Source: a virus
Lineage: Duplodnaviria > Heunggongvirae > Uroviricota > Caudoviricetes
Virus record (IMG/VR): IMGVR_UViG_3300029613_000341
Coordinates: 1-42,454 of that record
Direction: 5' to 3' (one strand)
DNA length: 42,454 nt
Shown: piece after piece, positions 1,720-41,757 of the stretch
How the letters are laid out: every line of letters begins with the position of its first letter
Numbering within the stretch: position 1 is the stretch's first letter
Notes under the pieces: model-generated
Told to the model about the DNA's origin: nothing
Database searches by the model: none
The model's input: only the letters and a program-made list of their open reading frames with translations
Translations under genes and position numbers: made by a program

Positions 1720-1720
1720 T

Positions 1721-3469
1721 ATGACAGTGGCAAATTATAATTCTCTTGTCCAGAAAACTTTCTGCGAAAATGCAATTCGTTCCGTTGTCATGATTGATGA
1801 CGATTTTCTGACGTATTCTGAATCAATCAGGGCGTTGAATAACGAAGTTGATTTAGACTACAACAAAATTGACTCATCTAAACGAGCCGCTACTCTTGAG
1901 AGCTTTTTTCAATCTAAAAATATGATTTGTGATGTTGACAATGGTTCTGTTAATTTCGATGTGGATCGGATTAGAAAATCAGATCTTATTATTGTAGATT
2001 ATCATCTTGATAATAATGCACCTGATAAAACACTTAAACTATTACAAGATTTGAAAGACTCCGATCATTTAAATATGATTGTAATATATACTAGAGAGAA
2101 TTTAGAAACGGTTTGGATGCAGATATCATCGACTCTCAAAGGTGCTCTGGATATCAACAGCTTGATCATTGACTACGATAATGAAGATGTCCAAAGTTAT
2201 TGGGAAGACGTTGTATTACCGAACTTAAATGATAATGGTAATAAAGCTCTCACAAGAGATGAAACAATAGCCTATATTAAAGACAGTAAGCCTTGTAGAA
2301 GAATTAAAAGATTAATACATGATGATGCTGTGTTGGAGGATCAAAAGGATAAAAACTTCATTGCAAAAATGATTGCAGAATATGCTGTGTCTAGAAATGC
2401 AATTATTTCTAGCAACACATCTGGCAATGTCATTCGGGGTGATGAAAGCGGAGTAAAATGGATTCAATGTGGTAATATCTTTGTCTCCCTATTTCATAAG
2501 GTTCAAGATGATCATGAAAACGATGGAGATAGGATTTGGCAAACTCTCAATGATTCTCTCATTGAATGGAAACCATCTTATTATCAGTTAATAAAATCTG
2601 AAATTCAGAATGCAATCGAAGCTGAGGCTTTATCTTTTGTAAATCATTTGGCTAACGATCATTACGGTCAAGCTGCGTGGTTAAATGAGATATTAAAATC
2701 AGACTCGCCTGATATTAGATGTAGAAATATTGACTTTGTATTTGGTAATTTATCAGAAGAGCTTTATCAAAGACTTAAAAATAATAATACGCTGGATGAA
2801 TTTATCAAAAGTGTTTTTGATAGCTATTCAAATGAATACGCTAACAGCGGAGTTGCTGCATTGCTCCAATATTGCTCTTCAAAAATGGATCTGCCATCAA
2901 ATAATGATACTTATCACGAAATGTATCATGCTTTAAATATGAATTTGTCTTCAAAGAATTTTGAAGATGGTCATATTTCTACTGGCACTATTTTCTTTGA
3001 TACAGAGTCGAACAAATGGTATTTATGTGTATCTGCGGCATGTGATTTGGTTCCTACTCAGGGTAACGACCCTCACCATGTAAGATTAAGTCCGCACAGG
3101 CTCATTAAAGTTCTGGAGCTTTTTAACGCCAGTCAGAGTAAAGCATTGCCATTTGCTGAACATTCGAAATATATATATGTAATGCATAAAAATCAAAGAA
3201 AATATCTCTCTATTTTCGAAGGGGATAAAACGCTTCCTGTTGTTGATTATATGGTGGTGTTGAATCATGGAACAACAGTTGATGGCGAAGAAAAAAATAT
3301 TATTTCTGCCGTGTTTTTAAGTAATATGGATGGCAACGTGCAAAATGTTCCTGTCCGACTCAAACTTAAATCTCAACTGAGAACTGGTTATGCAGAAAGA
3401 TATCAGGCTATAGCGTCTCAGTATAGCTCAAGGATTGGTGTGGATTATGTATCAATGATGCTACCATAA
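1721..3469 (+). CDS. Receiver (REC)-like domain protein with ~450-aa C-terminal domain of unknown function
   Basis: ATG at 1721 one base after the upstream stop (TAA 1717-1719), GGAG-type RBS just upstream. N-terminal ~130 aa have the receiver pattern: VVMIDDD acidic pair, DLIIVDYHL with candidate acceptor Asp (codon 1997-1999), MIVIYT. Remainder has no motif I recognise. AT-rich. Confidence 0.5.
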   Translation: MTVANYNSLVQKTFCENAIRSVVMIDDDFLTYSESIRALNNEVDLDYNKIDSSKRAATLESFFQSKNMICDVDNGSVNFDVDRIRKSDLIIVDYHLDNNAPDKTLKLLQDLKDSDHLNMIVIYTRENLETVWMQISSTLKGALDINSLIIDYDNEDVQSYWEDVVLPNLNDNGNKALTRDETIAYIKDSKPCRRIKRLIHDDAVLEDQKDKNFIAKMIAEYAVSRNAIISSNTSGNVIRGDESGVKWIQCGNIFVSLFHKVQDDHENDGDRIWQTLNDSLIEWKPSYYQLIKSEIQNAIEAEALSFVNHLANDHYGQAAWLNEILKSDSPDIRCRNIDFVFGNLSEELYQRLKNNNTLDEFIKSVFDSYSNEYANSGVAALLQYCSSKMDLPSNNDTYHEMYHALNMNLSSKNFEDGHISTGTIFFDTESNKWYLCVSAACDLVPTQGNDPHHVRLSPHRLIKVLELFNASQSKALPFAEHSKYIYVMHKNQRKYLSIFEGDKTLPVVDYMVVLNHGTTVDGEEKNIISAVFLSNMDGNVQNVPVRLKLKSQLRTGYAERYQAIASQYSSRIGVDYVSMMLP

Positions 3470-3995: not shown

Positions 3996-5225
3996 TTAGG
4001 CTACCAGAGCATTTGATCTTTGAGCTTGAACGTAATCACTCCACCATTGCATCAAACTCTGTCGCTCTATCAGATATTCTGCACGATTGTATGCTGCGAT
4101 AATTTCATCTTTTTTCGAGTGGGCAAGCGCTGCCTCAAGAACTTCAGCTCTGAATTTACCAGACTCCTCTGCCGCTGTTCGTGCAATAGAACGCATACCG
4201 TGAGCTACAAGCTCGCCTCCGAACCCCATTCGGATGATAGCTGCGTTGGCTGTTTGTTCATGCATATGATTAAGAGGCGCTTTTATGCTGGGGAAAACCC
4301 ATTCTCTATGCCCACTTATTGATTTCATTAATTCAAGGATGCGCAAAGCTTCTTTACTCAAAGGAACTTTGTGAAGCTTTTTCATTTTCATGAAATCAGC
4401 AGGAATGTTCCAAATGCTGTTGGTTGTATCAATATCAGACCACCTTGCGCGAACGGCTTCACCCGGACGAACCCATGTCAACAATTGCCATTCAATTAGC
4501 ATACGTGTTTCCAACCGGATTGACGCATTCGTCAAAGATTCCATAAACCTTGGCAATTCGCTTGGGGGAAGGGCAGGCATATTTTGCTTTTTTGGTTTAC
4601 TGAATCTTTGACCAAGGTTGTCAGCCGGGTTGAACTCAATAAGTTCTTCAGTAGCTGCCCACCGGAAGATTTCATTCAGACGTGAAATGATACGGCGTAG
4701 AGTTTCCAATACGCCTCGTTGCTCAATAGGATCAAGGTGTTGTTTTAAGAGCTTAGGTCGGATCTCATTGATAGGGACATTACCCAGACCGGGAAAGACA
4801 TTTCTCTCTAAGCTGCGCCAGATGTCTGCTGCATGGTCTTGTGAGATACCTGATGTCTTTACCTTCTCATCTAACCATTTCCGCGCTACGGCTTGGAGAG
4901 TGTGCTCAGTAGCACTCTTTAATGCCTTCGCCTTATCGTTGTTATGGATTTGGGGATCAACACCATTTGCCAGAAAGGAGAGATATTCATCACGTAAGGC
5001 TCTGGCTCTTGCAAGGGTAAGGTGAGGATATGTCCCAAGGCTCATTTTGGTTCTTTTCTTGCTCACTGGTACTGCATACCTGAAATACCAATTTTTCTTG
5101 CCTCCTTTCGCCAAAGGAGCGATTCGTAGAATCAGACCATCACCGTCAAACAAGTTGATTTCTTTATCGGCTGGCTTGGTGCTTTTGATTTCAGTGTCAG
5201 TGAGCTTCTTAGCGATTTTTGCCAT
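3996..5225 (-). CDS. int: Tyrosine recombinase/integrase, P4 (CP4-57 IntA-like) family
   Basis: ORF 3996-5267; most likely start is the Met of MAKIAKKLTDTEIK (5225). N-terminal arm-binding region typical of P4-family integrases, C-terminal catalytic motifs (AHGMRSIART, AAYNRAEY). Lies ~170 bp from the ssrA 3'-end fragment, the usual tmRNA-int arrangement. Confidence 0.85.
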   Translation of the reverse strand: MAKIAKKLTDTEIKSTKPADKEINLFDGDGLILRIAPLAKGGKKNWYFRYAVPVSKKRTKMSLGTYPHLTLARARALRDEYLSFLANGVDPQIHNNDKAKALKSATEHTLQAVARKWLDEKVKTSGISQDHAADIWRSLERNVFPGLGNVPINEIRPKLLKQHLDPIEQRGVLETLRRIISRLNEIFRWAATEELIEFNPADNLGQRFSKPKKQNMPALPPSELPRFMESLTNASIRLETRMLIEWQLLTWVRPGEAVRARWSDIDTTNSIWNIPADFMKMKKLHKVPLSKEALRILELMKSISGHREWVFPSIKAPLNHMHEQTANAAIIRMGFGGELVAHGMRSIARTAAEESGKFRAEVLEAALAHSKKDEIIAAYNRAEYLIERQSLMQWWSDYVQAQRSNALVA

Positions 5226-5319
5226 TTTGGGACCCTCGGTTTTTGGACCCTTCTTAGTGGGTCCCATTCAGGGTGCCATAACTCGTAGTTCTCAGCAATT
5301 CTCACTGGACGACAATAGA

Positions 5320-5549: not shown

Positions 5550-6569
5550 TTATTTACCTTGAGAATCTATAGGTAAGATCCCCTTAAAAATCAAAAAATC
5601 TGGATCGTAAGCATAATTGGCTAAAAAATCACCGTTATTGGCAGTTGCTTGGAAAATAATTGTATTTTGATCAATTAGCATGTACAGAGATATCAATATA
5701 TCTCGTAATCCACGAAACATTTCTTTTATTTCTTTTTCATCTGAAAATGATGTTTCTATTCCTAAGTTTGATATCGGATCAAAAATCTCAAATTTGTTGA
5801 CTTCTCTTTCATAATTAACTCCTAGTTCTCTACACAGCCATACCACTTGTGCTTCAATGTTCTCTAAATTAGATATGTTAACTTGTTTTGGGTAAAGCTG
5901 ATTGTATCTTGCTATTTCATGCCCAATGTTGTTATATATATTTTCTAATTTTTCAAGGAATGATTTATCAACTTCATTGTTATATCCAGTGGAGATTGAG
6001 GATTTTGTGAATATTTTTTTATATAATGAGTAGGTATGAACTACAGATAGTTTAATTGTGTCTTTTTCGAAAGTTGTATTATCTCGACGAGAAAGGGTAA
6101 ATGACGGTAACGTTTTAAACATATCCGAATAATTCTTGAGGTGAGCGTAGTAAGCATCACTGCGGTTTTTCTCAGTCACTAGATCTATCTGTTGCTGTGT
6201 TTTCCTAATTTGATTTTCCGTTTGTATTGTTCTGTGAATGTTAGCGACTATAGCTACAAAGGGTATCGAAAGGGAAAGAAGAGCGATAGGCAACTTGCTT
6301 ATTTCAATGAAGTTTGAAAATCCATCAGCATCAAATTGAGGAGAGTGTCCCATCCATGAGAATATACCGAAGTATAAGGATGAGATAATAGGTATTCTGA
6401 TGGATTGTTTAAATAAATTTTGTTTTGTTAGCCTTTCCTCAGTCATTTCAAAATAATTATTATTTTTGTTTTTTGTGTATTCAATAAATAGATATATTAA
6501 ATAAAGAATTATAAGGAACGTAGATATTTCTGGTTTTTTTATATAGCTAATTACGAATTCTTGAGTCAT
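5550..6569 (-). CDS. Membrane protein of unknown function (prophage moron between attL and int)
   Basis: ORF 5550-6581; the Met at 6569-6567 overlaps the int stop as ATGA (TGA 6568-6566), suggesting translational coupling. About three N-terminal hydrophobic helices, ~200-aa soluble C-terminal part. Strongly AT-rich. Confidence 0.5.
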   Translation of the reverse strand: MTQEFVISYIKKPEISTFLIILYLIYLFIEYTKNKNNNYFEMTEERLTKQNLFKQSIRIPIISSLYFGIFSWMGHSPQFDADGFSNFIEISKLPIALLSLSIPFVAIVANIHRTIQTENQIRKTQQQIDLVTEKNRSDAYYAHLKNYSDMFKTLPSFTLSRRDNTTFEKDTIKLSVVHTYSLYKKIFTKSSISTGYNNEVDKSFLEKLENIYNNIGHEIARYNQLYPKQVNISNLENIEAQVVWLCRELGVNYEREVNKFEIFDPISNLGIETSFSDEKEIKEMFRGLRDILISLYMLIDQNTIIFQATANNGDFLANYAYDPDFLIFKGILPIDSQGK

Positions 6570-7594
6570 GGTGTGGTCCATTTTAATCTATATAAAGGGT
6601 TTTTTGATACTGCATCCTCTAAATGATCAGGTGCAAAATGTGCATAAACCATAGTCATTTTTATATCCGAGTGACCAAGGATGTCGCGCAACACGAGTAT
6701 GTTTCCGCCGTTCATCATAAAATGGCTAGCGAATGTATGGCGCAGTACGTGGGTGCATTGGCCCTCCGGTAGATCTATACCTGCCCGTTTTACTGCTCGT
6801 TCAAAGGCTTTTCTACATGGTGAGAATAACTTCCCTCTGTTCTTTGGGAGTTCGTCATACAGCTCCTGTGATATGGGTACTGTTCTGTTTTTCTTGCCTT
6901 TGGTCTTTGTATAAGTAATTCGGTATTTCGATATTTGGTGGCCCTGTAGGTTTTCTGCTTCACTCCATCGCGCACCAGTAGCCAGGCATATTTTTGCAAT
7001 CATTAGTAGGCTGGTGTTTTGAGATTCGGCGCAGGCATTAAGCAGGCGTTTGATTTCGTCCGTGGAAAGAAAAGCCAATTCACCTTCAGCAATTTTGAAG
7101 GTTGGAAGCCCTGCCAGTGGGTTTGGTGCGGACCAGTGCCCTAGTTTTTTCAATGTACCGAACACCGATGACAGATTGCGTTGTTCAAGATTTACCGTGC
7201 GGGGCTTAACCGGTGACATGAGCACGCCATCTTCGTTTTTGATCTCACCTTTTAATCTGGCTTCCCGGTACTTTGTGAAATCACCTGCTGTCAATTCAGA
7301 AGCGATGGGATCGCCAAGCCCATTACAAATGATTTTTAGCTTAGCCATTAATCGCTTAGGGTCAGCGAGTGTCTGACCGTACAGGGAATACCATTGCTCA
7401 ATCACTTCTGACAGTGGTCGCCGATCTTCCTTTTCTCCCAGCCAAGGTTTCTTGTTTACCTCATCCATGGTGAAATTCTCAAACGCAATGGCTTCGCCTT
7501 TCGTCGCAAATTGTTTGCGTACGCGTTTGCCATCTCTCCCGTTTGGGTAGCATTCACATAACCACTTTCCGTTCGGCTGTTTTCTGATCGTCAT
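6566..7594 (-). CDS. int: Phage integrase (P2/186-type tyrosine recombinase)
   Basis: 342-aa ORF with catalytic motifs HVLRHTFASH and LGHSDIKMTMVYAHF; recalled similarity to P2 Int; immediately downstream of cI. Confidence 0.9.
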   Translation of the reverse strand: MTIRKQPNGKWLCECYPNGRDGKRVRKQFATKGEAIAFENFTMDEVNKKPWLGEKEDRRPLSEVIEQWYSLYGQTLADPKRLMAKLKIICNGLGDPIASELTAGDFTKYREARLKGEIKNEDGVLMSPVKPRTVNLEQRNLSSVFGTLKKLGHWSAPNPLAGLPTFKIAEGELAFLSTDEIKRLLNACAESQNTSLLMIAKICLATGARWSEAENLQGHQISKYRITYTKTKGKKNRTVPISQELYDELPKNRGKLFSPCRKAFERAVKRAGIDLPEGQCTHVLRHTFASHFMMNGGNILVLRDILGHSDIKMTMVYAHFAPDHLEDAVSKNPLYRLKWTTP

Positions 7595-10427: not shown

Positions 10428-11281
10428 GCACCATCCTGAAATGGGCGGGAAATAAAACCGCCATTATGTCCGAACTGAAAAAACACCTTCCTGATGGCCC
10501 GCGACTGGTTGAACCTTTCGCGGGTTCCTGTGCTGTGATGATGGAGACGGATTACCCCAGCTATCTGGTTGCGGATATTAATCCTGATTTAATCAACCTC
10601 TATAAAAAGGTTGCCGCTGATTGTGAATCGTTTATATCTCGCGCCAGAGTTTTATTTGAGATCGCAAACAGGGAGGTGGCTTATTACAACATAAGGCAGG
10701 GGTTTAATTACTCCACTGAAATTACTGATTTCATGAAAGCGGTATATTTCCTGTATCTCAATCGTCATGGTTACCGTGGATTATGTTGCTATAACAAGAG
10801 CGGGCATTTCAACATTCCGTACGGTAATTATAAAAATCCGTATTTCCCTGAAAAAGAAATTCGCGCATTTGCAGAGAAAGCCCAGCGTGCAACGTTTATC
10901 TGCGCAAGCTTTGATGAAACGCTGGCGATGCTGCAGGTGGGGGATGTGGTGTATTGCGATCCGCCGTATGACGGTACGTTTTCCGGCTATCACACTGATG
11001 GTTTCACTGAAGATGACCAGTATCACCTGGCATCCGTTCTTGAACATCGGTCATCAGAAGGACATCCGGTCATTGTTTCTAACAGTGACACATCCCTGAT
11101 CCGTTCGCTTTATCGCAATTTTACTCACCACTACATCAAGGCAAAACGCAGCATCGGCGTAGCAGCTGGTGAGAGTAAATCTGCAACAGAAATCATCGCT
11201 GTTTCCGGGCCGCGCTGCTGGGTGGGATTTGATCCTTCGCGTGGCGTGGATAGTTCTGCCGTGTACGGAGTGCGTGCATGA
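10424..11281 (+). CDS. dam: DNA adenine methyltransferase (Dam-like orphan N6-adenine MTase)
   Basis: N-terminal KWAGNK...FAGSCAV (SAM-binding) and catalytic DPPY motif ([10 protein letters not shown]). Confidence 0.85.
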
Positions 11282-13692
11282 GCCATGCTGATATGAACAA
11301 CTGCAGCGGCTTTAACGAGGCCGCCGCAGCATTCTCATGGAACAGCCCGAAAAAGGCTATTAACCCTTATCTGGACCCGGCGGAAGTTGCGCCGGTTTCT
11401 GCGCTGTCAAACCTGATCACTCTGTACGCTACCGATAACGAGCAGGAACAACTGCGCCGCGAGGCACTGAGTGATCAGGTCTGGGAGCGTTATTTCTTTA
11501 ATGAATCCCGTGATCCTGTCCAGCGCGAAATGGAGCAGGATAAGCTCATTAGCCGGGCAAAGTTGGCGCATGAGCAGCAGCGTTTTAACCCGGACATGGT
11601 CATTCTGGCAGACGTCAGCGCCCAGCCCTCCCATATCAGCAAGCCGCTGATGCAACGTATTGAATACTTCAGTAGCCTGGGCAGGCCAAAGGCTTATTCC
11701 CGCTATTTACGTGAGACGATTAAGCCATGTCTGGAACGACTGGAGCATGTACGCGACAGTCAGCTATCCACTTCTTTTCGCTTTATGGCAAGCCATGAAG
11801 GGCTGGACGGCCTGCTAATCCTGCCTGAAATGAGTCAGGATCAGGTCAAACGCCTGTCCACCCTTGTAGCTGCGCATATGAGCATGTGCCTTGATGCAGC
11901 TTGTGGCGATTTGTATGCCACCGATGATGTTAAGCCAGAAGAAATCCGCAAGACATGGGAAAAGGTGGCAGCAGAAACCCTGCGTCTGGATGTCATCCCG
12001 CCTGCGTTTGAGCAACTCCGTAGGAAAAGAAACCGCCGTAAACCAGTGCCCTATGAACTCATTCCGGGTTCGCTGGCGCGTATGCTGTGCGCCGACTGGT
12101 GGTATCGGAAATTGTGGAAGATGCGTTGCGAATGGCGGGAAGAGCAGTTGCGTGCTGTCTGCCTGGTCAGCAAAAAAGCATCTCCCTATGTCAGCTATGA
12201 AGCCGTGATGCATAAACGTGAGCAGCGCCGTAAGTCGCTGGAGTTTTTCCGTTCTCATGAACTGGTGAACGAAGACGGCGACACGCTGGATATGGAAGAT
12301 GTGGTAAACGCCAGTAGTAGCAACCCGGCGCATCGCCGCAATGAGATGATGGCATGTGTTAAAGGTCTGGAGCTTATCGCGGAAATGCGCGGTGACTGCG
12401 CCGTTTTCTACACCATCACCTGTCCGTCACGTTTCCATTCCACGCTAAATAACGGCAGGCCCAACCCGACCTGGACAAATGCGACGGTAAGACAAAGCAG
12501 TGATTATCTGGTCGGCATGTTTGCTGCATTTCGTAAGGCGATGCACAAAGCCGGATTGCGCTGGTATGGCGTGCGGGTGGCTGAGCCGCATCATGACGGT
12601 ACAGTTCACTGGCACCTGTTGTGTTTTATGCGCAAAAAAGATCGCCGCGCCATTACTGCTTTGTTGCGTAAGTTTGCCATTCGTGAAGACCGCGAGGAGC
12701 TGGGTAATAACACAGGACCACGCTTTAAGTCTGAGTTGATTAACCCGCGCAAAGGTACGCCAACAAGCTACATCGCGAAATACATCAGTAAGAACATTGA
12801 CGGGCGTGGTCTGGCTGGCGAGATCAGCAAGGAAACGGGTAAATCCCTGCGTGATAACGCTGAATACGTTAATGCCTGGGCGTCTCTGCATCGTGTTCAG
12901 CAATTCCGCTTCTTTGGCATTCCGGGGCGTCAGGCTTACCGTGAACTGCGATTGCTGGCTGGTCAGGCGGCAAGGCAACAGGGGAACAAAAAAGCAGGTG
13001 CGCCGGTACTGGATAACCCACGCCTTGATGCCATCCTGGCTGCTGCTGATGCTGGTTGCTTTGCCACCTACATAATGAAGCAGGGCGGCGTACTGGTTCC
13101 CCGTAAATATCACCTCATCAGAACCGCTTATGAAATCAACGAAGAGCCGACCGCCTATGGCGATCACGGTATTCGTATTTATGGCATCTGGTCACCCATT
13201 GCAGAGGGCAAGATCTGCACTCATGCAGTGAAGTGGAAAATGGTTCGTAAGGCCGTTGACGTTCAGGAGGCGGCAGCCGACCAGGGCGCTTGCGCCCCTT
13301 GGACTCGTGGCAATAACTGTCCCCTTGCTGAAAATTTGAACCAACAGGAGAAAGATAAATCAGCTGATGGGGACCCCAGAACGGACATTACCAGCATGGA
13401 TGACAAGGAGTTGCACGATTACCTGCACAGTATGAACAAAAAAGAGCGCCGGGAACTGGCTGCAAGATTACGCCTGGTGAAACCGAAACGGCGTAAAGAC
13501 TACAAACAGCGAATTACAGACCATCAGAGACTGCAGCTCGTCTATGAGCTGAAGTCCAGAGGATTTGATGGTAGCGAGAAAGAGGTCGATTTACTCCTTC
13601 GCGGCGGCAGTATTCCGTCAGGAGCAGGCTTGCGTATTTTCTATCGGAACCAGCGTTTGCGGGAAGATGATAAGTGGCGGAACCTGTATTAA
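11278..13692 (+). CDS. A: Replication initiation protein A (rolling-circle HUH endonuclease, P2 gpA family)
   Basis: 804 aa; HUH motif VHWHLL and tyrosine pair YIAKYISKN; position after the early genes matches P2/186. Confidence 0.9.
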
Positions 13693-13784
13693 TTACGCGG
13701 ATTAACAATTCGTGCTCTTAATAATACCAGGCATATCAGGCTGATGAACGTAAAAAAACGTTTTACATCAGTAAGATTATTATA

Positions 13785-13804
13785 TACTGTAAATATAAAC
13801 AGTG
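13785..13804 (+). promoter_or_regulatory. LexA (SOS) box
   Basis: TACTGTAAATATAAACAGTG: CTGT-N8-ACAG with an AT-rich centre, ~45 bp upstream of the 13845 ORF. Confidence 0.6.
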
Positions 13805-13844
13805 GTTATGTATACAGTATTGCTTTGGTGTCATAGGAGGAAAG

Positions 13845-14033
13845 ATGCAGGACTATTTTTTGGAGTCTTTGAAGCTCCAGCGCATTGATTTTTTTCTTAA
13901 GCTTGTAGCGGCTAGTGAGTGTAGTGATGAAGAGAAGGGGCTGGCCCTGCAGTGGGTTTCTGAATTGACTGATGAACTCATGGCAAAAATCAGAACTCAC
14001 GAATACAACCGCTCAATGGATGTCATCAGTTGA
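13845..14033 (+). CDS. Small protein downstream of the LexA box (possibly the N-terminal part of a Tum-like antirepressor module)
   Basis: 62-aa ORF with strong RBS (AGGAGGAAAG before the ATG); same position as the SOS-inducible tum operon of phage 186. Confidence 0.45.
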   Translation: MQDYFLESLKLQRIDFFLKLVAASECSDEEKGLALQWVSELTDELMAKIRTHEYNRSMDVIS

Positions 14034-14043
14034 GGTGACTTTT

Positions 14044-14277
14044 ATGCGCATTGAAATAATGATCGATAAAGAGCAGAAGATTAGCCAGTCTACCCTGGAC
14101 GCTCTGGAGTCCGAGCTTTACCGCAACCTGCGCCCCCTGTATCCCAAAACGGTAATTCGTATCCGTAAAGGTAGCTCTAACGGTGTGGAACTGACCGGAC
14201 TGAAACTGGACGAAGAAAAAAAACAAGTGATGAAAATTATGCAGAAGGTGTGGGAAGACGACAGCTGGCTGCATTAA
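14044..14277 (+). CDS. DinI-like protein (DinI/Tum C-terminal domain family)
   Basis: 77 aa, MRIEIMIDKEQKISQSTLDALESELYRNL...KIMQKVWEDDSW resembles DinI as recalled; downstream of the LexA box. Confidence 0.7.
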   Translation: MRIEIMIDKEQKISQSTLDALESELYRNLRPLYPKTVIRIRKGSSNGVELTGLKLDEEKKQVMKIMQKVWEDDSWLH

Positions 14278-14591
14278 GAAACGTTGCCCCCAGGAGGATT
14301 CATTCTGATGGGGGCTAGTTTGGGCAACGAGTGAAATAAGGTGTAAGGTCATTTTGATAAATGATCGTCTGCTTTGTGCAAGATGCAAACGTTTCTTCTG
14401 CTAACTTTCGTTAATTAACGAATGGCAGACTAATTCGCAACGGATAATCTGAATTTTGTAAGATTATGGGCATTTCTATAAAATTTACTAATAATAACCT
14501 TACAATGTACACTACCGATTGAATTTTCCATAGTTGGCCTTTGGCTCTACTTACCATCTATGTTTATGTATTTTATCAAAATGGACTAAAA

Positions 14592-16484
14592 ATGAACAAT
14601 ACGTACATCAAAGACTATATAGAATATTACCTTAGCCTTACAACTGAACCTCAATACGCCATTATGCTTAAAGGTGCTTGGGGATCAGGTAAAACTTGGT
14701 TCATTGAACAAGTTCTTGAAGAATATAAGCAGAAGAATTCAGAGTTTAAATTTCTAAAAGTGAGTTTGTATGGCGTCAACTCTATTAAACAGATTGAAGA
14801 TGAGTTCTATCGTCAACTTCATCCTGTCCTATCAAACAAAGCCCTTATCTTTGGTGCAAATGTACTAAAAAATACGCTTAAGGCTACTTTCAAGATCGAT
14901 CTCAATGGCGATAATAAATCTGACGTTGATGTCAATACCAATGTTCCCACCATTAATCTTAACGATTTTAGTAGAAAACCAGATGGTTTTGTGCTGGTCT
15001 TTGATGATATCGAGAGAGCTGGTATAGATTTACCAATTTTATTTGGATATATAAACCACTTTGTAGAAGTAAACGGATACAAAGCGATCTTGGTTGCCAA
15101 TGAAGAAGAAATAATCAATAGAGAAAAGCGAATAAATAATGATGATGAGAAATCTAGCAGCGAATACATGAGAACAAAAGAAAAGCTTGTTGGTAAAACA
15201 TTTGAAGTAACGTCAGATTTACATAGTGCTTGTAATGTTTTTTTGGGCGTAATTAGCAGTTTACACGTTGCTAATATATTTAAAGAAGATATGCAGGCCA
15301 TAGAAGACATCTATGTGTCGGCGAAATATAATAATCTAAGACACTTGAGGCAGTTCTTTCTTGATGTACAACGCATCATTTCCCTTTTGGGAAATAAATA
15401 TGTCAGCAACGACGATTTTATGAGGGTATTTTTCCAGCAGTTGTTAATTTTCTCGATAGAGTACCGGGGAGGGAACCTTAACTACGAGGAATTCGATTCA
15501 ATCAGCAATGTTAATTATGGTATGTTTTTAGGTAAAGAGCGTACCAAAACTAAGTATGACATGATCGTCGAGAAATATTCATCTCCTGTATTAACCGAGA
15601 AGTTACTGGATGGTGCGTACTGGAGGGAGCTAATCTGTGATGGAAAGGTAACGAGTGAACTTCTCGCTCAGTTGGATATTACGCGATTTTTTAGAAGCAC
15701 CGATGCCCAAGCATGGGAGTATTTGTGGAACTATCGAGAACTTAATGAAACTATGCTTAATGAGCAGTACGCCATTGCCAAGGATAATCTATTTTCAGGT
15801 AAGATCACTTCCTTAGGTGAACTCCTGATGACCGCGAGTATTTTGCTGGACATGGCGAAAGAAGGTCTAACAACAGATGATGTTCATGATCTCATAAATG
15901 AGACAAAACAGAATATAAATAATTATTATAATAGACTTAGAGCTGAAGATATACATAAGGAATATGCGCAAACGCATTATAACGAATTAAGGGCATGGCG
16001 TGGCTTTGGTTTTCTTGACAGGGATAGCGATGAATTCAAACTCATTATTGAGCATATTGAGATAGCGAAGAAGAAACGGTTTGATGAATCAATTCCGGAA
16101 TTTGCGTTGCAGTTCAGCGATGAGTTGCAAAGGGGAAACTTATCGTTTGTATCTGAATTGAGTCATTCTAATAATAGGCAGTTAAATCTTCATAATGTGC
16201 CTTTTTTACACTTGGTTCCTCCTGAAGTTTTCATTGAAAGCTATAGGAAACTTGACCCAGTCCTCATGAGGAAACTGGCATTTAGCTTGCGGAATCGTTA
16301 TTCTGATGGGGATGCTAGAACCAGACTGACCGAAGAATACAACTGGTTGATTAACCTAAAAGAGATAGCTGTAGATTTCACTCAAAACGCAGCCAATAAC
16401 TCCTTTCAGGTTTTTCACGTAAAGTTTTTTATTGACTATGTATTAACTAGCGCAATCAAATTCTTTACTGAGGGAACTGATTAA
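14592..16484 (+). CDS. P-loop NTPase (Walker A GAWGSGKT, Walker B VLVFDD; possibly KAP-type), ~630 aa
   Basis: ATG at 14592 (ORF open from an alternative TTG at 14541); Walker A and B motifs present; long C-terminal region without motifs I recognise; strongly AT-rich; followed by a terminator. Confidence 0.7.
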   Translation: MNNTYIKDYIEYYLSLTTEPQYAIMLKGAWGSGKTWFIEQVLEEYKQKNSEFKFLKVSLYGVNSIKQIEDEFYRQLHPVLSNKALIFGANVLKNTLKATFKIDLNGDNKSDVDVNTNVPTINLNDFSRKPDGFVLVFDDIERAGIDLPILFGYINHFVEVNGYKAILVANEEEIINREKRINNDDEKSSSEYMRTKEKLVGKTFEVTSDLHSACNVFLGVISSLHVANIFKEDMQAIEDIYVSAKYNNLRHLRQFFLDVQRIISLLGNKYVSNDDFMRVFFQQLLIFSIEYRGGNLNYEEFDSISNVNYGMFLGKERTKTKYDMIVEKYSSPVLTEKLLDGAYWRELICDGKVTSELLAQLDITRFFRSTDAQAWEYLWNYRELNETMLNEQYAIAKDNLFSGKITSLGELLMTASILLDMAKEGLTTDDVHDLINETKQNINNYYNRLRAEDIHKEYAQTHYNELRAWRGFGFLDRDSDEFKLIIEHIEIAKKKRFDESIPEFALQFSDELQRGNLSFVSELSHSNNRQLNLHNVPFLHLVPPEVFIESYRKLDPVLMRKLAFSLRNRYSDGDARTRLTEEYNWLINLKEIAVDFTQNAANNSFQVFHVKFFIDYVLTSAIKFFTEGTD

Positions 16485-16549
16485 CTTTTTGTTGATTAAC
16501 ATAGGCAATATTATTAGAAGTACTAGGGATAGTCAGTAAAATTATTAAC

Positions 16550-16581
16550 GTCCGCTTCGCTCAAAGCGGACTTTGTGCTTT
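16550..16581 (+). terminator. Rho-independent terminator
   Basis: GTCCGCTT-CGCTCA-AAGCGGAC stem-loop followed by TTTGTGCTTT, ~65 bp after the NTPase stop. Confidence 0.55.
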
Positions 16582-16769
16582 ATAAAAACGAGAGTTTTGT
16601 TTTTCAAGCGGTCATTCGGTTACGGGATTTCACTTCCCCCGTAAGTGCATGACTATGCCGCATGAGATCGCATGATCGTTTGCGGATCGTTTTTGCTAAG
16701 GCACGCCAGAACTGGTGGGATTTTGCGTAGATCATGCGCCTGCATGAAAACCGCTACATAAAGCGGGCA

Positions 16770-16788
16770 GGCGTGGCGGGGATACGAG
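16770..16788. other. Candidate cos site (cohesive-end region)
   Basis: GGCGTGGCGGGGATACGAG followed by GCGCGCTG; the first 13 bases match my recollection of the 186/P2 cohesive end (GGCG[T/A]GGCGGGGA). Coordinate and identity are tentative. Confidence 0.3.
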
Positions 16789-16896
16789 CGCGCGCTGTAT
16801 GCCTGAAGTGGCTAAAATAGTATCTGTCATAGGTACAACTTAGTGTAGTATCATCCATATAATCCATTGAAATATAATCGACTCTCATTAGAGGTG

Positions 16897-17895
16897 ATGA
16901 TGAACGGAATCTGGTACGAAAACACTCATACACGCATTCCTAATTTTGAAACAACAGTACATCAAAAGCACAAATTCGGTTACGCTTATGAAACAACAAG
17001 TCATTTTGTGCATCTGTATGGGCGTGACGTGGGATTTAATGTAATATCAGTTGGGTTAACTGTTATTGAGCAACGAAGTGGAACTCTCAATGATTGGGTT
17101 CGGAGAGTATTTGGGGCTCAGAACATATCTCCTTTAGATAATGAAATTGGACATGTAACTAGGGGAGTGTGGCGGCCATCCTTATATTATGTCAATGATA
17201 CAGAAACAGCATTAGGTATCGATGAGTTTGAAAAAAGAGCAACAGAGCAAGCTCTAAGAGTTTTGATAGAAAAACTCGATGATATTTTTCTATATGTAGA
17301 ACCAAGTGCCCATGGTTTGATTTCTTACAGTCATAAATGTAGAGAGCTATTAATTCTTGCTTGTACTGAGGTTGAAAATCAATGGGTGTCAATCATTGGT
17401 AATTCGAATTTATCTCGTTCAAATGGTCGATACTCCACAAATGATTATGTGAAATTATTAGATAAGTGTTATTTGTCTGAATATAAAATTCAATATTTGA
17501 ATTATGACGGATTAAGGCATTTCAAACCTTTTGATGGGTGGAATGCAAGTACCCCTACAACATCTTTGTCATGGTATAATGCATATAATAAAACTAAACA
17601 TGATAGATCAGGAGCATTCCACTTTTCCACTTTAGAAAATGTGATGGATGCAGTTGCTGCTTGTGTTGTAATGTACTGTGTAAAATATGGCCCGTTTAGC
17701 TTATTGGAAGCCAATACGTCTCTATCAACGATCGTTAATCAAAACTTTTCAATTTCATTAGATAATAGCAATCCAGCAAGTTATTACATTCCTGAAATTG
17801 AACTTCCACCGGATACAAGAACGGATTTATTAATTTATGATTGTTATCGAGAAAACCATAATAAAGCATGGGTCACTGATCCCCTAGTGCTCTAA
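16897..17895 (+). CDS. Hypothetical protein (~332 aa), unknown function
   Basis: ORF 16867-17895 (alternative TTG); ATG at 16897/16900 with GAGGTG RBS; AT-rich; no motif I recognise. Confidence 0.5.
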   Translation: MMNGIWYENTHTRIPNFETTVHQKHKFGYAYETTSHFVHLYGRDVGFNVISVGLTVIEQRSGTLNDWVRRVFGAQNISPLDNEIGHVTRGVWRPSLYYVNDTETALGIDEFEKRATEQALRVLIEKLDDIFLYVEPSAHGLISYSHKCRELLILACTEVENQWVSIIGNSNLSRSNGRYSTNDYVKLLDKCYLSEYKIQYLNYDGLRHFKPFDGWNASTPTTSLSWYNAYNKTKHDRSGAFHFSTLENVMDAVAACVVMYCVKYGPFSLLEANTSLSTIVNQNFSISLDNSNPASYYIPEIELPPDTRTDLLIYDCYRENHNKAWVTDPLVL

Positions 17896-17951
17896 TTTCC
17901 TGCTAAAGGGAGCTTTTAATTATAAACGCTCCCTTCGGTTGTCGCTATTTA

Positions 17952-18578
17952 TTATATATCAATAGAGTTTTGAAATTTTAATAACTGCCATCTTGTTAAT
18001 AGTGGTTTTATTGCTATGTTGTGTTGGGTATTTATTTTTAAACCTTCGAATTTCGAATATCCATTTTCCAAGGCTTCCACTGAAAAATGAATGGTTTTTG
18101 TTATCGGGTTTATAGCACAAAGATTTAGGTCATATAAAGTATGAATGTCACTTCTGAGCAATAATCCATTGCTAATATGATTGTGACTATCGTTTCGATA
18201 TACATTAATGTGAGCAGCATCAAGAATATCAACAAGCTTACAGCCCGTAACCGCACAAGTAGGATTTGATTTTAATAGCTGGTCGCGAAATGTTTTTTGC
18301 CCACTTCGTTGTTTTATTTGCCGTTCTACAATTTGCCGTTGATCTTCACCCATTAAAGTGGGGGTGTCTTTATCAGCTTCGCTGGCGTTGAGCTCCAGAA
18401 TAATAGTATGTTGGGCGGTAAGCAAAGCAACAGCCCATTGATAGTTAACTTCTTGGATGGACATTTGCCCATTGTAGCGTGGAGTTTCATCTATAAATTG
18501 TGACATTGTAATATTGGATAATTTACGGTACTGGTTGCCGCAGTATGCTATAAATTCTTTAGCTGGCTCAAAAACCAC
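17952..18578 (-). CDS. HNH endonuclease domain protein (C-terminal part of an apparently split gene)
   Basis: HNH motif CAVTGC...LDAAHI...NGLLLRSDIHTLYDLNL; annotated start is GTG; the frame stays open upstream to a stop at 18669-18671, overlapping the end of the upstream ORF. Confidence 0.7.
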   Translation of the reverse strand: MVFEPAKEFIAYCGNQYRKLSNITMSQFIDETPRYNGQMSIQEVNYQWAVALLTAQHTIILELNASEADKDTPTLMGEDQRQIVERQIKQRSGQKTFRDQLLKSNPTCAVTGCKLVDILDAAHINVYRNDSHNHISNGLLLRSDIHTLYDLNLCAINPITKTIHFSVEALENGYSKFEGLKINTQHNIAIKPLLTRWQLLKFQNSIDI

Positions 18579-18625
18579 TCTGGGTTCATCAAATTCATGG
18601 CCATTATCACAACGCCACTCTGATT

Positions 18626-18919
18626 TTATAGTTTTCCTTTGAAGAATTTTTTTGCTTTGCAGTCTAGGTTAATACATTTGTTACGCTTCTTATTAATGCT
18701 CTGTGTTTCTAATTTTTCAATAACAGATATACCTAAAATATTTTCTCTGTTGGTAATAATATCACCGTCTTTTACATTTTTGTGGTTCGCTACAAAACTG
18801 TCATAGCGATAGAAAACTGATGAGTCATCGGGATAACTATCATTTCCCCAGTATCTAAGATCGTCTTTCTCAATTGCCTTAAAAAAAACCATACTTGCTG
18901 TACCATGAACTTTTCCCAC
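18626..18919 (-). CDS. Small ORF immediately upstream of the HNH ORF (likely the N-terminal part of the same gene, separated by a frameshift)
   Basis: 97-aa ORF ending ...CKAKKFFKGKL; an A7 run (T7 on plus strand, 18647-18653) lies where the two frames overlap. Confidence 0.4.
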   Translation of the reverse strand: MGKVHGTASMVFFKAIEKDDLRYWGNDSYPDDSSVFYRYDSFVANHKNVKDGDIITNRENILGISVIEKLETQSINKKRNKCINLDCKAKKFFKGKL

Positions 18920-18976
18920 TAATCAAATTTTGGTTTGTTCTATCGAACAGCAAAGCATGTTGATATACAAGAGAAA

Positions 18977-20008
18977 TCATCCCAAAGAATATGGCTCAAA
19001 TCGCAAAATTTTTTGTTCTAACCAGTCATTTACTTCACGCATCCTTTTTTGCAACGGTAATAATTCATTTCGCACAAACACATTTGCCGCCTTCTCCACA
19101 TCCCCAAACCCCCCAACATTGCTAGGCATTATCCCCATCATTTGTGGTGGCACACGATGCGCTGCCATCATGTCATCCCGACTCACGTTCTTGATGTTAA
19201 GAAATTCATCCTTCGCTGCGACTTCTGATAGCGGGATAATCTGAAGCCCGTCTTTTTTGCCGTTAGGCGAGTACATAAACAGGTTGCGGAAGTTACCCGG
19301 ACCTTTGGCACTTTTCATCGCGTTGCGGAGGTTGTTTACATCCTCCTGGTTCTGCGCGGCGTCGGTCATGTACATGATGAAGCCTGCATGACTGCCGTTG
19401 ATGTAATACTTACGGCGGAACAGCGTGGCGGACTCATTGAGCAGGGCGGACGGAATGGCAGAAAGATAGCCGGGCAGGCCGTAGATCTCTTGGTTAATGT
19501 CCGGTTCCATCAGATGAAAAATGCTGCCTTTCGTGAACTGATACGGCTGGGTTGTCATACCGTATTGCACAAACCAGTAGGTATTCAGGTCTAACCCGCG
19601 TCGGGTGTATTTTGCCAGAGCAGGCTCAAGGGCGATAACTTCACCGAAGCGGTTCGTGCGTTTCTCCAGGTAGGCGTTACCAAATACCAGATAGTCCTGC
19701 ACAAAACGTGAAAAAGCCTGCTGGCTGAGCAGCGGGTGAGGGATGTAGGTACTGGTCAGAATGTTGCATTTCACCGCAATTGGTGAACTGTGATGCACGG
19801 CGGCGCGGAAGGTGCGCGCCAGTCCGTCAAAACTCACTGGCGGCTCATACCAGCGATCTGTCTGTACGCATTCCACATAGTCCAGTAGTTCACGGCGGTC
19901 CAGAACCGGAACGGGATCGCCGAAGCTGAATGCTTCGGCTGAAGTCTGGTTTTTATGCTGGGTCTGTTTCGTCGCCGCAGCGCGGTTCTTCTTACTCTTT
20001 CCCATCAA
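18977..20008 (-). CDS. Q: Portal protein (P2 gpQ family)
   Basis: 343 aa; position and recalled similarity to P2 Q; stop abuts the terminase start. Confidence 0.9.
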   Translation of the reverse strand: MMGKSKKNRAAATKQTQHKNQTSAEAFSFGDPVPVLDRRELLDYVECVQTDRWYEPPVSFDGLARTFRAAVHHSSPIAVKCNILTSTYIPHPLLSQQAFSRFVQDYLVFGNAYLEKRTNRFGEVIALEPALAKYTRRGLDLNTYWFVQYGMTTQPYQFTKGSIFHLMEPDINQEIYGLPGYLSAIPSALLNESATLFRRKYYINGSHAGFIMYMTDAAQNQEDVNNLRNAMKSAKGPGNFRNLFMYSPNGKKDGLQIIPLSEVAAKDEFLNIKNVSRDDMMAAHRVPPQMMGIMPSNVGGFGDVEKAANVFVRNELLPLQKRMREVNDWLEQKILRFEPYSLG

Positions 20009-27282: not shown

Positions 27283-27721
27283 ACTGCAGAAAGTGGACGA
27301 CTGGCTGAGTGCCTTGCTGGCGAATCTGGAGCCAGCCGCAAGAAGCCGCATGATGCGCCAGCTGGCGCAGGAACTGCGCCGGATACAGCAGCAGAACATC
27401 AGGATGCAACGCAATCCAGATGGCAGTAGTTATGAACCGCGACGGGTAACAGCACGCAGTAAAAAGGGGCGCATCAAACGTCAGATGTTTGCAAAGCTGC
27501 GAACCACAAAATACCTGAAAACTGCCGCCAGCGCCGATTCTGCCAGCGTGCAGTTTGAAGGCAAGGTACAGCGCATTGCCCGTGTTCACCATTACGGCTT
27601 GCGTGATCGCGTCAGCCGTAAGGGGCCACAGATACGTTATGCTAAACGTAGGTTACTTGGAATTTATGATACTGATTTTGATATTATAGAAGAGATAATC
27701 ATGAATTTTTTGATTCGTTAG
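27275..27721 (+). CDS. S: Tail completion protein S (P2 gpS family)
   Basis: GTG start; recalled similarity to P2 S (LLANLEPAAR..MMRQ.AQELRR.QQ.NI..QRNPDGS.Y.PR.VTARSK.GRI.R.MFAKLRTT.Y, QRIARVHHYGLRDRVSRKGP). Confidence 0.85.
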   Translation: MAELQKVDDWLSALLANLEPAARSRMMRQLAQELRRIQQQNIRMQRNPDGSSYEPRRVTARSKKGRIKRQMFAKLRTTKYLKTAASADSASVQFEGKVQRIARVHHYGLRDRVSRKGPQIRYAKRRLLGIYDTDFDIIEEIIMNFLIR

Positions 27722-28880
27722 ATTCATTAATTTTCTTAAAGTATGAGTCTATTTTTTCAATTAATAAATTGATGCTTTTTATAAATTCTTTTGTTTCTTT
27801 CTCTGTTGGTTCATGTGATGTATGAGCTATTTTGTCACGTAATTCTTTCCTATTTTTATTTGCATGTTGCCACTCAAGTGGCGCAATTTCGGGTACAGAG
27901 ATGTTAAAGAGTTGTTTGAATAGTTTTTTACATCTATCATCGAACTTCCAGTTTTTATTTAATGTTTCTTTTGTCTGGCATTCATTGATACCATTGCGAT
28001 GAAAGGCATTAATAATTTTTCTGAGAATATAGCTTTCAAGGCCTGCTGATGCTTCAATTACGGCTGATCTAAATGCACCTTTATGAACAAGATTGTCTGC
28101 TCTAATCAATAATAGTTCAGGATGTTCATTGAATTCATTTGACATTAAACGTTTTTTGAAATTATCAATGAGACTTTCATCGTGTTTATACCAGCTTTCT
28201 CTCATTAATGGGGTGATTACTCCAACTAAAGGAATTGCACTTATCTTAATACCATCGCAATAATGCTCTTGTAACACTCCGTTGGTAAATCCTGAGCCAA
28301 CTTGATAAAGAGATATCTCGTCTGCAAATTGATCTTTAAAGGCAACTCTATACTGTTTTATAAAGTGGTTTATTATTCCGATGCATTCCTCTGATCTTTT
28401 AGGTGGAAATATCTCTCTAGCAGTTTTTATTTTTCTCTCTAACTCTATTTTTTTATCTATATCTTGCTGGCTCATTTTGGATAGGAACATCTCAGCATCT
28501 TCCACAGATGGGAAGTTATCTTCTTTCCTTATTTGGTTTCTTATAGAGTTGATTAGTTCTTCATGTGATATTTCTAAAAGGTCAAAACATTCCCAATAGT
28601 TGGCGAGAGAAATAATAGTCCGGCATTTCATTATCCCTCTTTCATTTGTGTGATGTGGTAGTAGTTGTTCTCTGGTACCGATTAATAGGGTTTGAGGGAA
28701 TAAGCTTGCATCTTTAAATAGTGCATAGTAATCGTTGTGAACTGTTAAGCGTAAATGGTTATTTTCATATAGAAAATCATAATCACCATCTGGAATATTG
28801 AGGACATAAGGCAACTCGACCAAGTAACGTGCAGCAAAGATCATTTCAGTCATCTCCATATGAGAATTCAATTGTGCCAA
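27699..28880 (-). CDS. Hypothetical 393-aa protein (moron between S and V, antisense to the late operon)
   Basis: Long minus-strand ORF in the otherwise plus-strand late region; very AT-rich; occupies the slot I recall as orf30 in P2; no motif I recognise. Confidence 0.55.
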   Translation of the reverse strand: MAQLNSHMEMTEMIFAARYLVELPYVLNIPDGDYDFLYENNHLRLTVHNDYYALFKDASLFPQTLLIGTREQLLPHHTNERGIMKCRTIISLANYWECFDLLEISHEELINSIRNQIRKEDNFPSVEDAEMFLSKMSQQDIDKKIELERKIKTAREIFPPKRSEECIGIINHFIKQYRVAFKDQFADEISLYQVGSGFTNGVLQEHYCDGIKISAIPLVGVITPLMRESWYKHDESLIDNFKKRLMSNEFNEHPELLLIRADNLVHKGAFRSAVIEASAGLESYILRKIINAFHRNGINECQTKETLNKNWKFDDRCKKLFKQLFNISVPEIAPLEWQHANKNRKELRDKIAHTSHEPTEKETKEFIKSINLLIEKIDSYFKKINESNESKNS

Positions 28881-40788: not shown

Positions 40789-41271
40789 TTATTCATCTGG
40801 GATCTCACCCGTTTCAAGAAAATGTATAAAGCCAGGCTCATCTATGATGATTGTGCCTTTCATCCTGGCTGCCGATACTTTTGATGGGCCTGCATTGTAA
40901 CCGCAACAGAGCATCTGAAGGCTTTGGGTTACAGAGGTTCTTACCGTTAATCCTTGTTCATTCGCCTTATCAACCAATCTTTCTTTATCTGCTTTCTTAA
41001 ATCCGGTGAAACACACATCGAATGTATTTTTTTTCGGACCAGATTGCTTAGTGAGATGTGAGTAGTTTTCGGGGAGGAATGACGCGCATTCCTGAATGGC
41101 TTGTTCTGGTGAATCGTACTGTTTAAGAATGCGGTCTTTTCGGAAGGTTTTTATTCGATCGGTGTTCTTACAAATGCCCTGTATATGATTTTCGCTATAA
41201 CTGATGCTCTGTATAGAGTGAACACCGATACGACCATTTGCATTGATGTAAACAAAGTGAAGTTCTTCCAT
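40789..41271 (-). CDS. Small protein with C-terminal BRCT-like domain and unknown N-terminal domain (moron next to attR)
   Basis: 160 aa; C-terminal FDVCFTGF...QGLTV.TSVTQSLQMLCCG.NAGPSKVSAARMKGTIIIDEPGF resembles the BRCT domain of NAD-dependent DNA ligases; AT-rich; lies between ogr and att. Confidence 0.55.
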   Translation of the reverse strand: MEELHFVYINANGRIGVHSIQSISYSENHIQGICKNTDRIKTFRKDRILKQYDSPEQAIQECASFLPENYSHLTKQSGPKKNTFDVCFTGFKKADKERLVDKANEQGLTVRTSVTQSLQMLCCGYNAGPSKVSAARMKGTIIIDEPGFIHFLETGEIPDE

Positions 41272-41394: not shown

Positions 41395-41439
41395 TGGTGG
41401 AGCTGGCGGGAGTTGAACCCGCGTCCGAAATTCCTACAT
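41395..41439. repeat. att direct repeat (phage core overlapping the ssrA 3' end)
   Basis: Identical to 5391-5435. Confidence 0.85.
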
Positions 41440-41757
41440 CCTCGGTACTACATGCTTAGTCAGTCTTTACATTCGCTTGCCAGCTGCGGACGGACACGCC
41501 ACTAACAAACTAGCCTGATTAAGTTTTAACGCTTCAACCCCAGGCAGGGCTTCCACGCGATCTCTTTTGGGTTTGACCTCTCTTGATCCCCGTCCTAAGA
41601 GCGGAGGCTAGGGAGAGAGGGCTCTAAGCAGGTTATTAAGCTGCTAAAGCGTAGTTTTCGTCGTTTGCGACTATTTTTTGCGGCTTTTTACGAGGCCAAC
41701 CGCCCCTCGGCATGCACCTTGGGTTTCGCAAATCCCGTCGAATCCAGAATCAGCCCC
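41395..41757 (-). ncRNA. ssrA: tmRNA (SsrA), 363 nt
   Basis: Reverse complement begins GGGGCTGATTCTGGATTCGACGGG and ends ...GTTCAACTCCCGCCAGCTCCACCA; contains the tag reading frame GCAAACGACGAAAACTACGCTTTAGCAGCTTAA (ANDENYALAA-stop); matches E. coli ssrA as I recall it. Confidence 0.95.

Follow-up and report, generated by a model that had tools for sequence, protein, structure and literature searches.

A KAP-type NTPase gene in the old/tin-equivalent slot of a P2-like prophage as a candidate single-protein anti-phage module

KAP-type P-loop NTPases were reportedly proposed as conflict proteins twenty years ago. Phage defence by such NTPases has been shown only in the last few years, with Tmn, EF_KAP and Reve, and we know of no mechanism for any KAP NTPase defence protein. 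Here we describe a further gene of this type, found in a P2-like E. coli prophage on a 42,454-nucleotide stretch of viral DNA (IMG/VR record IMGVR_UViG_3300029613_000341, analysed over its whole length and called the window below). Stop codon included, the gene runs from 14592 to 16484 on the plus strand, as supported by the open reading frame (ORF) call, Pfam and PADLOC. We read it, with a probability of about 0.6, as a stand-alone single-protein anti-phage (superinfection-exclusion) NTPase module, carried as a moron in the slot of the prophage that is equivalent to that of old and tin in P2.

The nearest tested relative of the encoded protein is Reve, a validated single-gene KAP-domain defence system of P4 satellites (Moura de Sousa et al., NAR 2026, PMC13586616; synthesized sequences in bioRxiv 10.64898/2026.02.27.708500). 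Reve (Syst.19_UnknownSys7) has 586 amino acids (aa), the motifs GEWGVGKT and VFIIDDLER, a spacer of ~100 residues free of transmembrane (TM) segments and a C-terminal region of ~330 aa, and its gene is placed beside the P4 cos site. The plasmid pFD425, which we take to be that of Reve, cuts the plaquing of 7/7 Drexlerviridae tested by 40-fold to >1e5-fold and has no reproducible effect on lambda, Bas18-24, T5-like phages, P1 or CLB_P2, these being the phages considered here from a 28-phage panel (bioRxiv 10.64898/2026.02.27.708500).

Several other systems invite comparison. In Enterococcus, EF_KAP and three more KAP fusions give a protection that depends on Walker B and is non-abortive; EF_KAP, the sole KAP fusion so examined, is judged not abortive because its protection is equal at a multiplicity of infection (MOI) of 1 and of 10 (PMC12632615). 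Like the window protein, these Walker B-dependent fusions are single genes in which a KAP NTPase is followed by a C-terminal region (~320 aa) without known domain; unlike it, EF_KAP has two N-terminal TM helices and comes from Firmicutes, a comparison made from published descriptions. Tmn, a TM-bearing KAP protein that synergises with Gabija (10.1101/2022.08.21.504612), differs by the TM helices inside its NTPase domain, and no PADLOC Tmn model matches the window protein. QatA, which is likewise a soluble KAP NTPase, assembles into 7-8-mers and binds DNA (PMC13279940); QatA and RdrA act with partner genes, whereas the window protein has no conserved partner and no HMM (hidden Markov model) match to either. 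PifA, the classical KAP-domain exclusion protein, provokes permeability lesions upon T7 infection, as cited in PMC12632615. Its model matches the window protein in the P-loop only (E = 0.0028, residues 19-52), and this is the sole PADLOC match at E ≤ 0.1 besides the family described below. Finally, Old and Tin of P2 occupy the same slot, from gpA/orf91 to cos, and serve in lysogenic conversion: P2 can do without their genes, which keep other phages out. In sequence they bear no relation to the window protein, Old being an ABC-ATPase/TOPRIM nuclease, and the direction of transcription in P2 is the opposite one.

Reve and the window protein have several features in common: each is a single soluble protein of similar size (586 vs 630 aa), with GxWGxGKT and hhhDDxER about 100 residues apart, no TM segment and a helical C-terminal region (~330 aa in Reve), and each gene lies next to cos as cargo of a P2/P4-system element. 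When full-length profiles of the two families are aligned, they match with 99% probability (E = 4.5e-18, 546 collinear columns), and hhalign on the NTPase domains gives 98.9% (E = 1.5e-17, 215 columns), the NTPase domains being clearly homologous. Pairwise identity is detectable just around the P-loop, with 33% over 49 aa. The sole PADLOC match of Reve is itself to PDC-S49 (E = 2.5e-11, Reve residues 22-277), the family to which the window protein belongs. The two differ in that Reve is carried by P4 satellites, not by P2, and in that Reve was assayed and is active on Drexlerviridae, whereas the window protein is a candidate.

A first-pass annotation of the window had tentatively called the protein KAP-type and named HMM and PADLOC searches as the check. 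Pfam KAP_NTPase (PF07693) matches residues 3-263 over profile positions 2-290 of 293, with 79.3 bits and E = 3.8e-22 against a gathering cut-off of 20 bits, which settles the assignment. In PADLOC, the protein is a full-length member of the candidate family PDC-S49: three of its HMMs match (E = 1.6e-159, 1.5e-152 and 1.5e-89, residues 2-623), the best, PDLC05031, over profile positions 5-614 of 624. The PDC families are 145 phage defence candidates, nominated by the 'guilt-by-embedding' approach of Payne et al. 2024 from genes embedded in BREX, DISARM and type I restriction-modification (RM) operons (10.1101/2024.01.29.577857); PDC-S49 was nominated from such embedded copies, whereas the window copy is prophage cargo. 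Assignment to STAND, NACHT, NB-ARC or nSTAND NTPases was rejected, all Pfam scores lying under the curated cut-offs, as do those of other AAA models. Membership of the Tmn, QatA, RdrA or PifA families was likewise rejected, with no PADLOC HMM support at E ≤ 0.1 except for the PifA P-loop. The exact protein, known from E. coli and Salmonella, is named 'NTPase KAP' or 'P-loop NTPase fold protein' at NCBI. As this name and the candidate status were public beforehand, the idea of a defence role is not new and the gene is credible rather than novel in kind; it is best filed as a further candidate in the emerging class of single-gene KAP-NTPase defence proteins.

From the ATG at 14592 a frame of 630 codons closes at 16484, and RefSeq places the start at the same ATG in all 46 E. 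coli genomes carrying the gene; the longest frame starts with TTG and covers 14541-16484. Both motifs that the first pass had seen in a protein of ~630 aa are present: GAWGSGKT, the Walker A motif, at residues 28-35 (14673-14696), and VLVFDD, the Walker B motif, at residues 134-139 (14991-15008), the latter being part of the extended form VLVFDDIER (residues 134-142). The gene is also AT-rich as described there, with a GC content of 36.7% vs 52.7% for the adjacent gpA. Across an alignment of 68 homologues, W30, G31, G33, K34, D138, D139, E141 and R142 are invariant, and both motifs (GxWGxGK[ST] and hhhhDDx[ED]R) are detected in 67/68 members. The invariant N248-L249-R250 lies close to the end of the KAP NTPase domain (residues 3-263, 14598..15380, plus strand).

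In canonical KAP NTPases, as summarised for Tmn in 10.1101/2022.08.21.504612, TM helices are placed within the P-loop domain, between Walker A and B. At the site of that TM hairpin the window protein has a lysine-rich insert (residues 77-125, 14820..14966, plus strand), which is conserved, not hydrophobic and modelled with low confidence. Across the PDC-S49-type family the whole Walker A-B spacer measures 92-106 residues, aligns without gaps and shows high conservation; L76, H77, P78, L80, K83, K97, K101, D103 and P119 are conserved in at least 90% of members and K93 in 84%. With a TM cut-off of ~1.6 for the 19-residue Kyte-Doolittle mean, the spacer of none of the 68 members contains a TM-grade segment: its maximum is 0.79 in the window protein and 0.34-1.30 across the members. 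Nine of the 68 do reach at least 1.6 at some point of the protein. With no such segment in the Walker A-B insert of any member, a transmembrane KAP reading was rejected, and the window protein is a soluble, TM-less member of the KAP clade. An amphipathic-helix reading of the insert was rejected as well, its helical hydrophobic moment of just 0.31-0.38 not being distinctive.

An AlphaFold model built on the 68-sequence alignment has a mean pLDDT of 83.5, with residues 79-122 below 50. The closest folds to the NTPase are DNA-binding initiator-clade AAA+ proteins (Cdc6/Orc1, DnaA, TnsC, MuB), and also RdrA, BrxC and Avs3. The rest of the protein is a C-terminal all-alpha domain, its faster-evolving half (residues 266-630, 15387..16481, plus strand). 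Because the KAP_NTPase profile spans residues 3-263, this part measures ~365 aa and not the ~450 aa of the first pass. The domain could be assigned neither to a Pfam family nor to a specific fold; in 22 diverse members it gave no Pfam match at all, and no sequence relative was found in the PDB. It follows from the Pfam and PDB searches that there is no recognisable enzymatic effector; no toxin, nuclease or pore domain was recognised in the KAP protein either. Searching with a profile of the last 365 residues retrieves 2,346 cluster representatives at the 50%-identity level, of which 1,112 match at E ≤ 1e-30. Among the full-length matches listed, the domain begins at about residue 250-280 of a 600-650-aa protein, so the NTPase and the C-terminal domain form a fixed pair.

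The slot is bordered on the left by the gpA replication endonuclease gene (11278-13692, plus strand; Phage_GPA, E = 1e-127) and a DinI-like gene (13972-14277, plus strand; DinI, E = 8e-23), which together span 11278..14277; 314 nt separate the stop codon of the latter (14277) from the KAP ATG. Its right border is a conserved non-coding cos region (16644..16796), which is also a recombination breakpoint for the neighbouring cargo. The cos equivalent itself is the 19-nt sequence GGCGTGGCGGGGATACGAG at 16770-16788. With its flanks it aligns to the P2 cohesive end GGCGAGGCGGGGAAAGCAC and flanks at 45/57 positions, and it lies within a 150-nt non-coding block kept in 87 P2-like phage records. Since cos could be mapped and the A-to-cos interval of P2 contains orf91, tin and old, the first-pass annotation was right to put the gene between replication gene A and a cos-like site and to equate its place with that of old/tin. 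It had spoken of a cargo slot, where the region from gpA to Q in fact consists of two, parted by cos (gene order gpA-DinI-KAP-cos-cargo-Q); the KAP gene is the sole occupant of the old/tin-equivalent one. In P2 the cos-to-Q interval is merely 167 bp, and comparison of P2 with window positions 13000-19100 gave no blastn-detectable shared DNA beyond the cos junction. The GpA-GpQ interval is the main defence hotspot of P2 (PMC9122126; PMC13586616), whose cargo is defined as variable non-core genes between gpA and the portal gene gpQ, and the KAP gene is such a gene.

The upstream region (14388..14591, plus strand) is cargo-specific. The DinI region is common to 1,125 E. coli genomes, and without the KAP gene the backbone homology stops at ~14275-14387; from this end of the homology to KAP-less P2-like prophages we conclude that ~200 nt of upstream DNA move with the gene. 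To two other KAP-carrying prophages, homology is continuous from gpA to 16795, 7 nt past cos, and then ends. Downstream, 66 nt past the stop codon, a terminator-like hairpin (16550-16571; 8-bp stem with 5 G-C pairs, -12.9 kcal/mol, z = -2.49) is followed by an interrupted T-run, TTTGTGCTTT, the whole covering 16550..16581 on the plus strand. The upstream intergenic region and terminator that the first pass had attributed to the gene are thus both borne out. The mobile unit is thus at ~14388-16640 and takes in the gene together with its own ~200 nt of leading DNA and the hairpin. Pairs of sigma-70-like hexamers are found at 14456-14484 and 14467-14495.

The KAP gene is accessory, being present in 46 of 5,426 complete E. 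coli genomes, compared with the 1,125 sharing the neighbouring DinI region. A distant blastn search for diverged E. coli copies on other elements, P4 among them, returned the same 46 loci only. A search of a phage collection gave only two weak partial protein matches, and the gene is therefore in no deposited phage genome. All five E. coli prophages examined carry it in the same slot after gpA and DinI, with four kinds of cos-Q cargo: ParA+SIR2, a 223-aa protein (twice), a RES-domain protein, and a 342-aa protein with HNH. The ParA-family and SIR2-family cargo belongs to the KAP prophage of strain SFE8 (locus L001 11344-13220), and the RES-family NAD+ phosphorylase to that of strain NRZ14408 (locus L017 7256-8410); both probably add to the defence modules of this hotspot. 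In FORC_081 (locus L019 2841-4876) the same prophage has undergone rearrangement: directly upstream of KAP, the place of gpA/DinI is taken by an IS3 element and a piece of a truncated integrase, and the int-CI end is inverted and adjoins a partial ssrA.

With full-length homologues of ~30% identity, the family extends to Beta- and Gammaproteobacteria, Bacteroidota, Cyanobacteria and other groups. Their contexts include lambdoid prophages in Serratia and Edwardsiella, a few plasmids and, in Pseudomonas, an islet with a serine recombinase; in nine non-E. coli contexts examined we found no conserved partner gene. In Pantoea sp. EA-12 (locus L013 336-7803) a 43%-identical member lies among RadC, ArdA, a group II intron reverse transcriptase, SRAP and PsiA. 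This locus looks like the leading region of a conjugative plasmid, an unusual place for a defence gene because such regions usually hold anti-defence genes.

When the window allele is compared with a 94% E. coli allele and with the Serratia and Edwardsiella copies, whole-gene dN/dS is 0.27-0.29, which indicates purifying selection. By domain, the ratio is 0.16-0.20 for the NTPase and 0.33-0.38 for the C-terminal domain, a pattern to be expected of a conserved motor that carries a recognition module under faster evolution. The gpA gene has a dN/dS of 0.055, so the KAP gene is five-fold more relaxed.

A defence role of the KAP gene is likely, and the link to defence drawn at the first pass is supported by membership of a candidate defence family and by the anti-phage activity of Reve. 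In the mechanism we propose, the KAP protein would be made in the lysogen, and its faster-evolving helical C-terminal domain would recognise a component of an incoming phage. Recognition would switch the NTPase to an NTP-dependent oligomer, analogous to the 7-8-mer rings of QatA/RdrA. As there is no enzymatic effector domain, the oligomer itself would be the effector, binding or remodelling phage DNA or a phage replication/packaging complex. The contact may come from the conserved lysine-rich insert, at whose position initiator-clade AAA+ proteins engage DNA, and specificity would probably be narrow, as it is with Reve. We hold these mechanistic details with much less confidence than the stand-alone anti-phage reading.

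A number of observations weigh against this reading. Expression in the lysogen is something we infer, because promoter-like hexamers in the upstream region are no commoner than chance when compared with shuffles. What we propose on oligomerisation, DNA binding and the insert is drawn by analogy, and the hydrophobic moment of the insert is, as given above, unremarkable at 0.31-0.38. Homology to Reve is secure for the NTPase domain only: the C-terminal domains alone align with 30.7% probability (E = 5e-4, 211 collinear columns) against 0.4-0.8% for mismatched-domain controls, a likeness that is no more than suggestive. Moreover, it is the sequence of plasmid numbers in the supplement that leads us to equate pFD425 with Reve. 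Neither PDC-S49 nor the accessions WP_029365156 and WP_105078174 are mentioned in the literature searched, and all PDC-S49 members are candidates. Finally, in Burkholderia, Flavobacterium and Psychrobacter solitary homologues sit amid housekeeping genes with no mobile or defence neighbour. The first-pass annotation had stated that homologues consistently found outside mobile or defence contexts would speak against a defence role; such consistency is not what we see, but the association is not universal.

Instead of acting against phages, the gene could encode an accessory NTPase serving the element (in replication or packaging near cos, in P4 interference or in counter-defence) or host fitness. 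The best structural matches, being replication and transposition AAA+ proteins (Cdc6/Orc1, DnaA, TnsC, MuB), point that way, as do the location between a replication gene and cos and the homologue next to ArdA and PsiA in a leading region rich in anti-defence genes. We nevertheless find it unlikely, for KAP/STAND NTPases in general resemble ORC/Cdc6, and such a likeness has been reported for the validated Reve too (bioRxiv 10.64898/2026.02.27.708500). Furthermore, the gene is missing from ~96% of the E. coli genomes with the same DinI-region backbone and is hence dispensable for the phage; the family also exists outside phages, on chromosomal islets and plasmids of many phyla, and it was genes within BREX, DISARM or RM operons that led to its nomination. 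Many STAND-type NTPase sensors are abortive, and a PifA-like defence, in which sensing of a phage protein would cause the NTPase to damage or permeabilise the host, the infected cell dying to the benefit of the population, has in PifA a precedent for lesions on T7 infection; the conserved basic insert that replaces the membrane hairpin could still bind the membrane peripherally. Such abortive infection or toxicity strikes us as slightly less plausible still, given that the insert is without a TM-grade segment in all 68 members, that no toxin, nuclease or pore domain is found, that the PifA model covers the P-loop alone and that EF_KAP is equally protective at both MOI values.

The want of an effector domain in the KAP protein would also fit a multi-gene system, with the KAP protein as sensor or regulator and a nuclease effector supplied from the cos-Q slot. 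That slot (16867..20008, context outside the KAP unit), bounded by the portal gene Q (18977-20008, minus strand), holds a gene for a 342-aa protein (16867-17895, plus strand; phrog_19461, E = 1.9e-222) and a frameshifted HNH_2 endonuclease gene (17952-18919, minus strand; phrog_21425, a 319-aa profile), and HNH_2 genes are near family members in three unrelated genomes: the window, Serratia and Lysobacter. We reject this arrangement as very improbable. Cos and the recombination breakpoint lie between the genes; the full 342-aa+HNH cargo is accompanied by the KAP gene in 2/12 genomes, leaving 10/12 without it, and 44/46 KAP genomes are without that cargo (2/46 have it). The three HNH_2 proteins are alike in the catalytic core alone (31-33% over 81 aa), which argues for generic co-location in islands and not for partnership, the HNH gene of the window is frameshifted, and most contexts lack any HNH. 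As for a decaying or inactive remnant, the foreign, AT-rich DNA, a dN/dS five times that of gpA and a Pantoea plasmid copy that is frameshifted into two pieces might suggest it, but the conservation data essentially refute it: the 630-codon frame is intact in 46/46 E. coli genomes and across genera, dN/dS is well below 1, and the catalytic residues are invariant in the 68 members. The stand-alone anti-phage module thus remains our preferred reading.

A broader and doubtful extension of it is that PDC-S49 and Reve form one superfamily of soluble, effector-less KAP NTPases (>2,000 clusters, many phyla) for defence that neither kills the host nor employs a nuclease or toxin domain. The ancestral KAP membrane hairpin would have been converted to a lysine-rich element that clamps or remodels phage DNA or a phage complex within an NTP-driven oligomer, and the fast-evolving helical domain would set phage specificity. 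If true, this would be a distinct 'motor-as-effector' mode of single-protein immunity. Being large, present in standard E. coli strains such as NC101 and ML35, encoded by a single gene and provided with a tested sister family, the family offers an easy experimental entry point. A positive defence result would turn PDC-S49 into a validated system and add one to the catalogue of the P2 hotspot. The practical gain would be modest, and the conceptual gain hinges on an effector-less NTPase mechanism emerging; it is the TM-less, effector-less architecture and its mechanism that are worth pursuing.

Within the cos-Q slot, the 342-aa protein could be placed in no Pfam, NCBIfam or PADLOC family; its gene and that of KAP move independently, and a 75%-identical variant exists in three further E. 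coli genomes. The neighbouring HNH_2 gene is split by one frameshift into ORFs of 97 aa and 208 aa, and the annotation of 12 E. coli genomes shows the same split, with 99.4% identity, which makes it either a fixed pseudogene or a gene that requires a frameshift.

Further genes were noticed elsewhere in the window. Left of the prophage, an AT-rich gene pair (1-3469, plus strand, GC 0.29-0.36) lies beside a second tyrosine integrase (3996-5267, minus strand); it encodes a HATPase_c + HEF_HK protein (572 aa, cut by the window edge) and a Response_reg_2 protein (PF19192, 588 aa), neither with a PADLOC match, and with the integrase it looks like a separate integrative island with a two-component-like pair. 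Just outside the P2 integrase gene (6566-7594), and overlapping it by 16 nt, is an AT-rich ORF of 343 aa (5550-6581, minus strand) that has no Pfam or PADLOC family; the same neighbour, WP_001676483.1, adjoins the integrase of strain 1409 and that of FORC_081. In P2, the interval from att to the integrase has been reported as a minor defence hotspot, and hotspots among the tail genes of P2 have been described as well (PMC13586616). In the tail/baseplate block, an AT-rich ORF of 393 aa (27699-28880, minus strand, GC ~0.34-0.37) without family assignment runs antisense, and strain 1409 has a different hypothetical gene at its position. The prophage is inserted beside ssrA (41395-41757, minus strand; tmRNA, tag ANDENYALAA), and between ssrA and the ogr end lies an ORF of 160 aa (40789-41271, minus strand) with a weak C-terminal match to the PADLOC candidate PDC-S48 (E = 1.8e-7).

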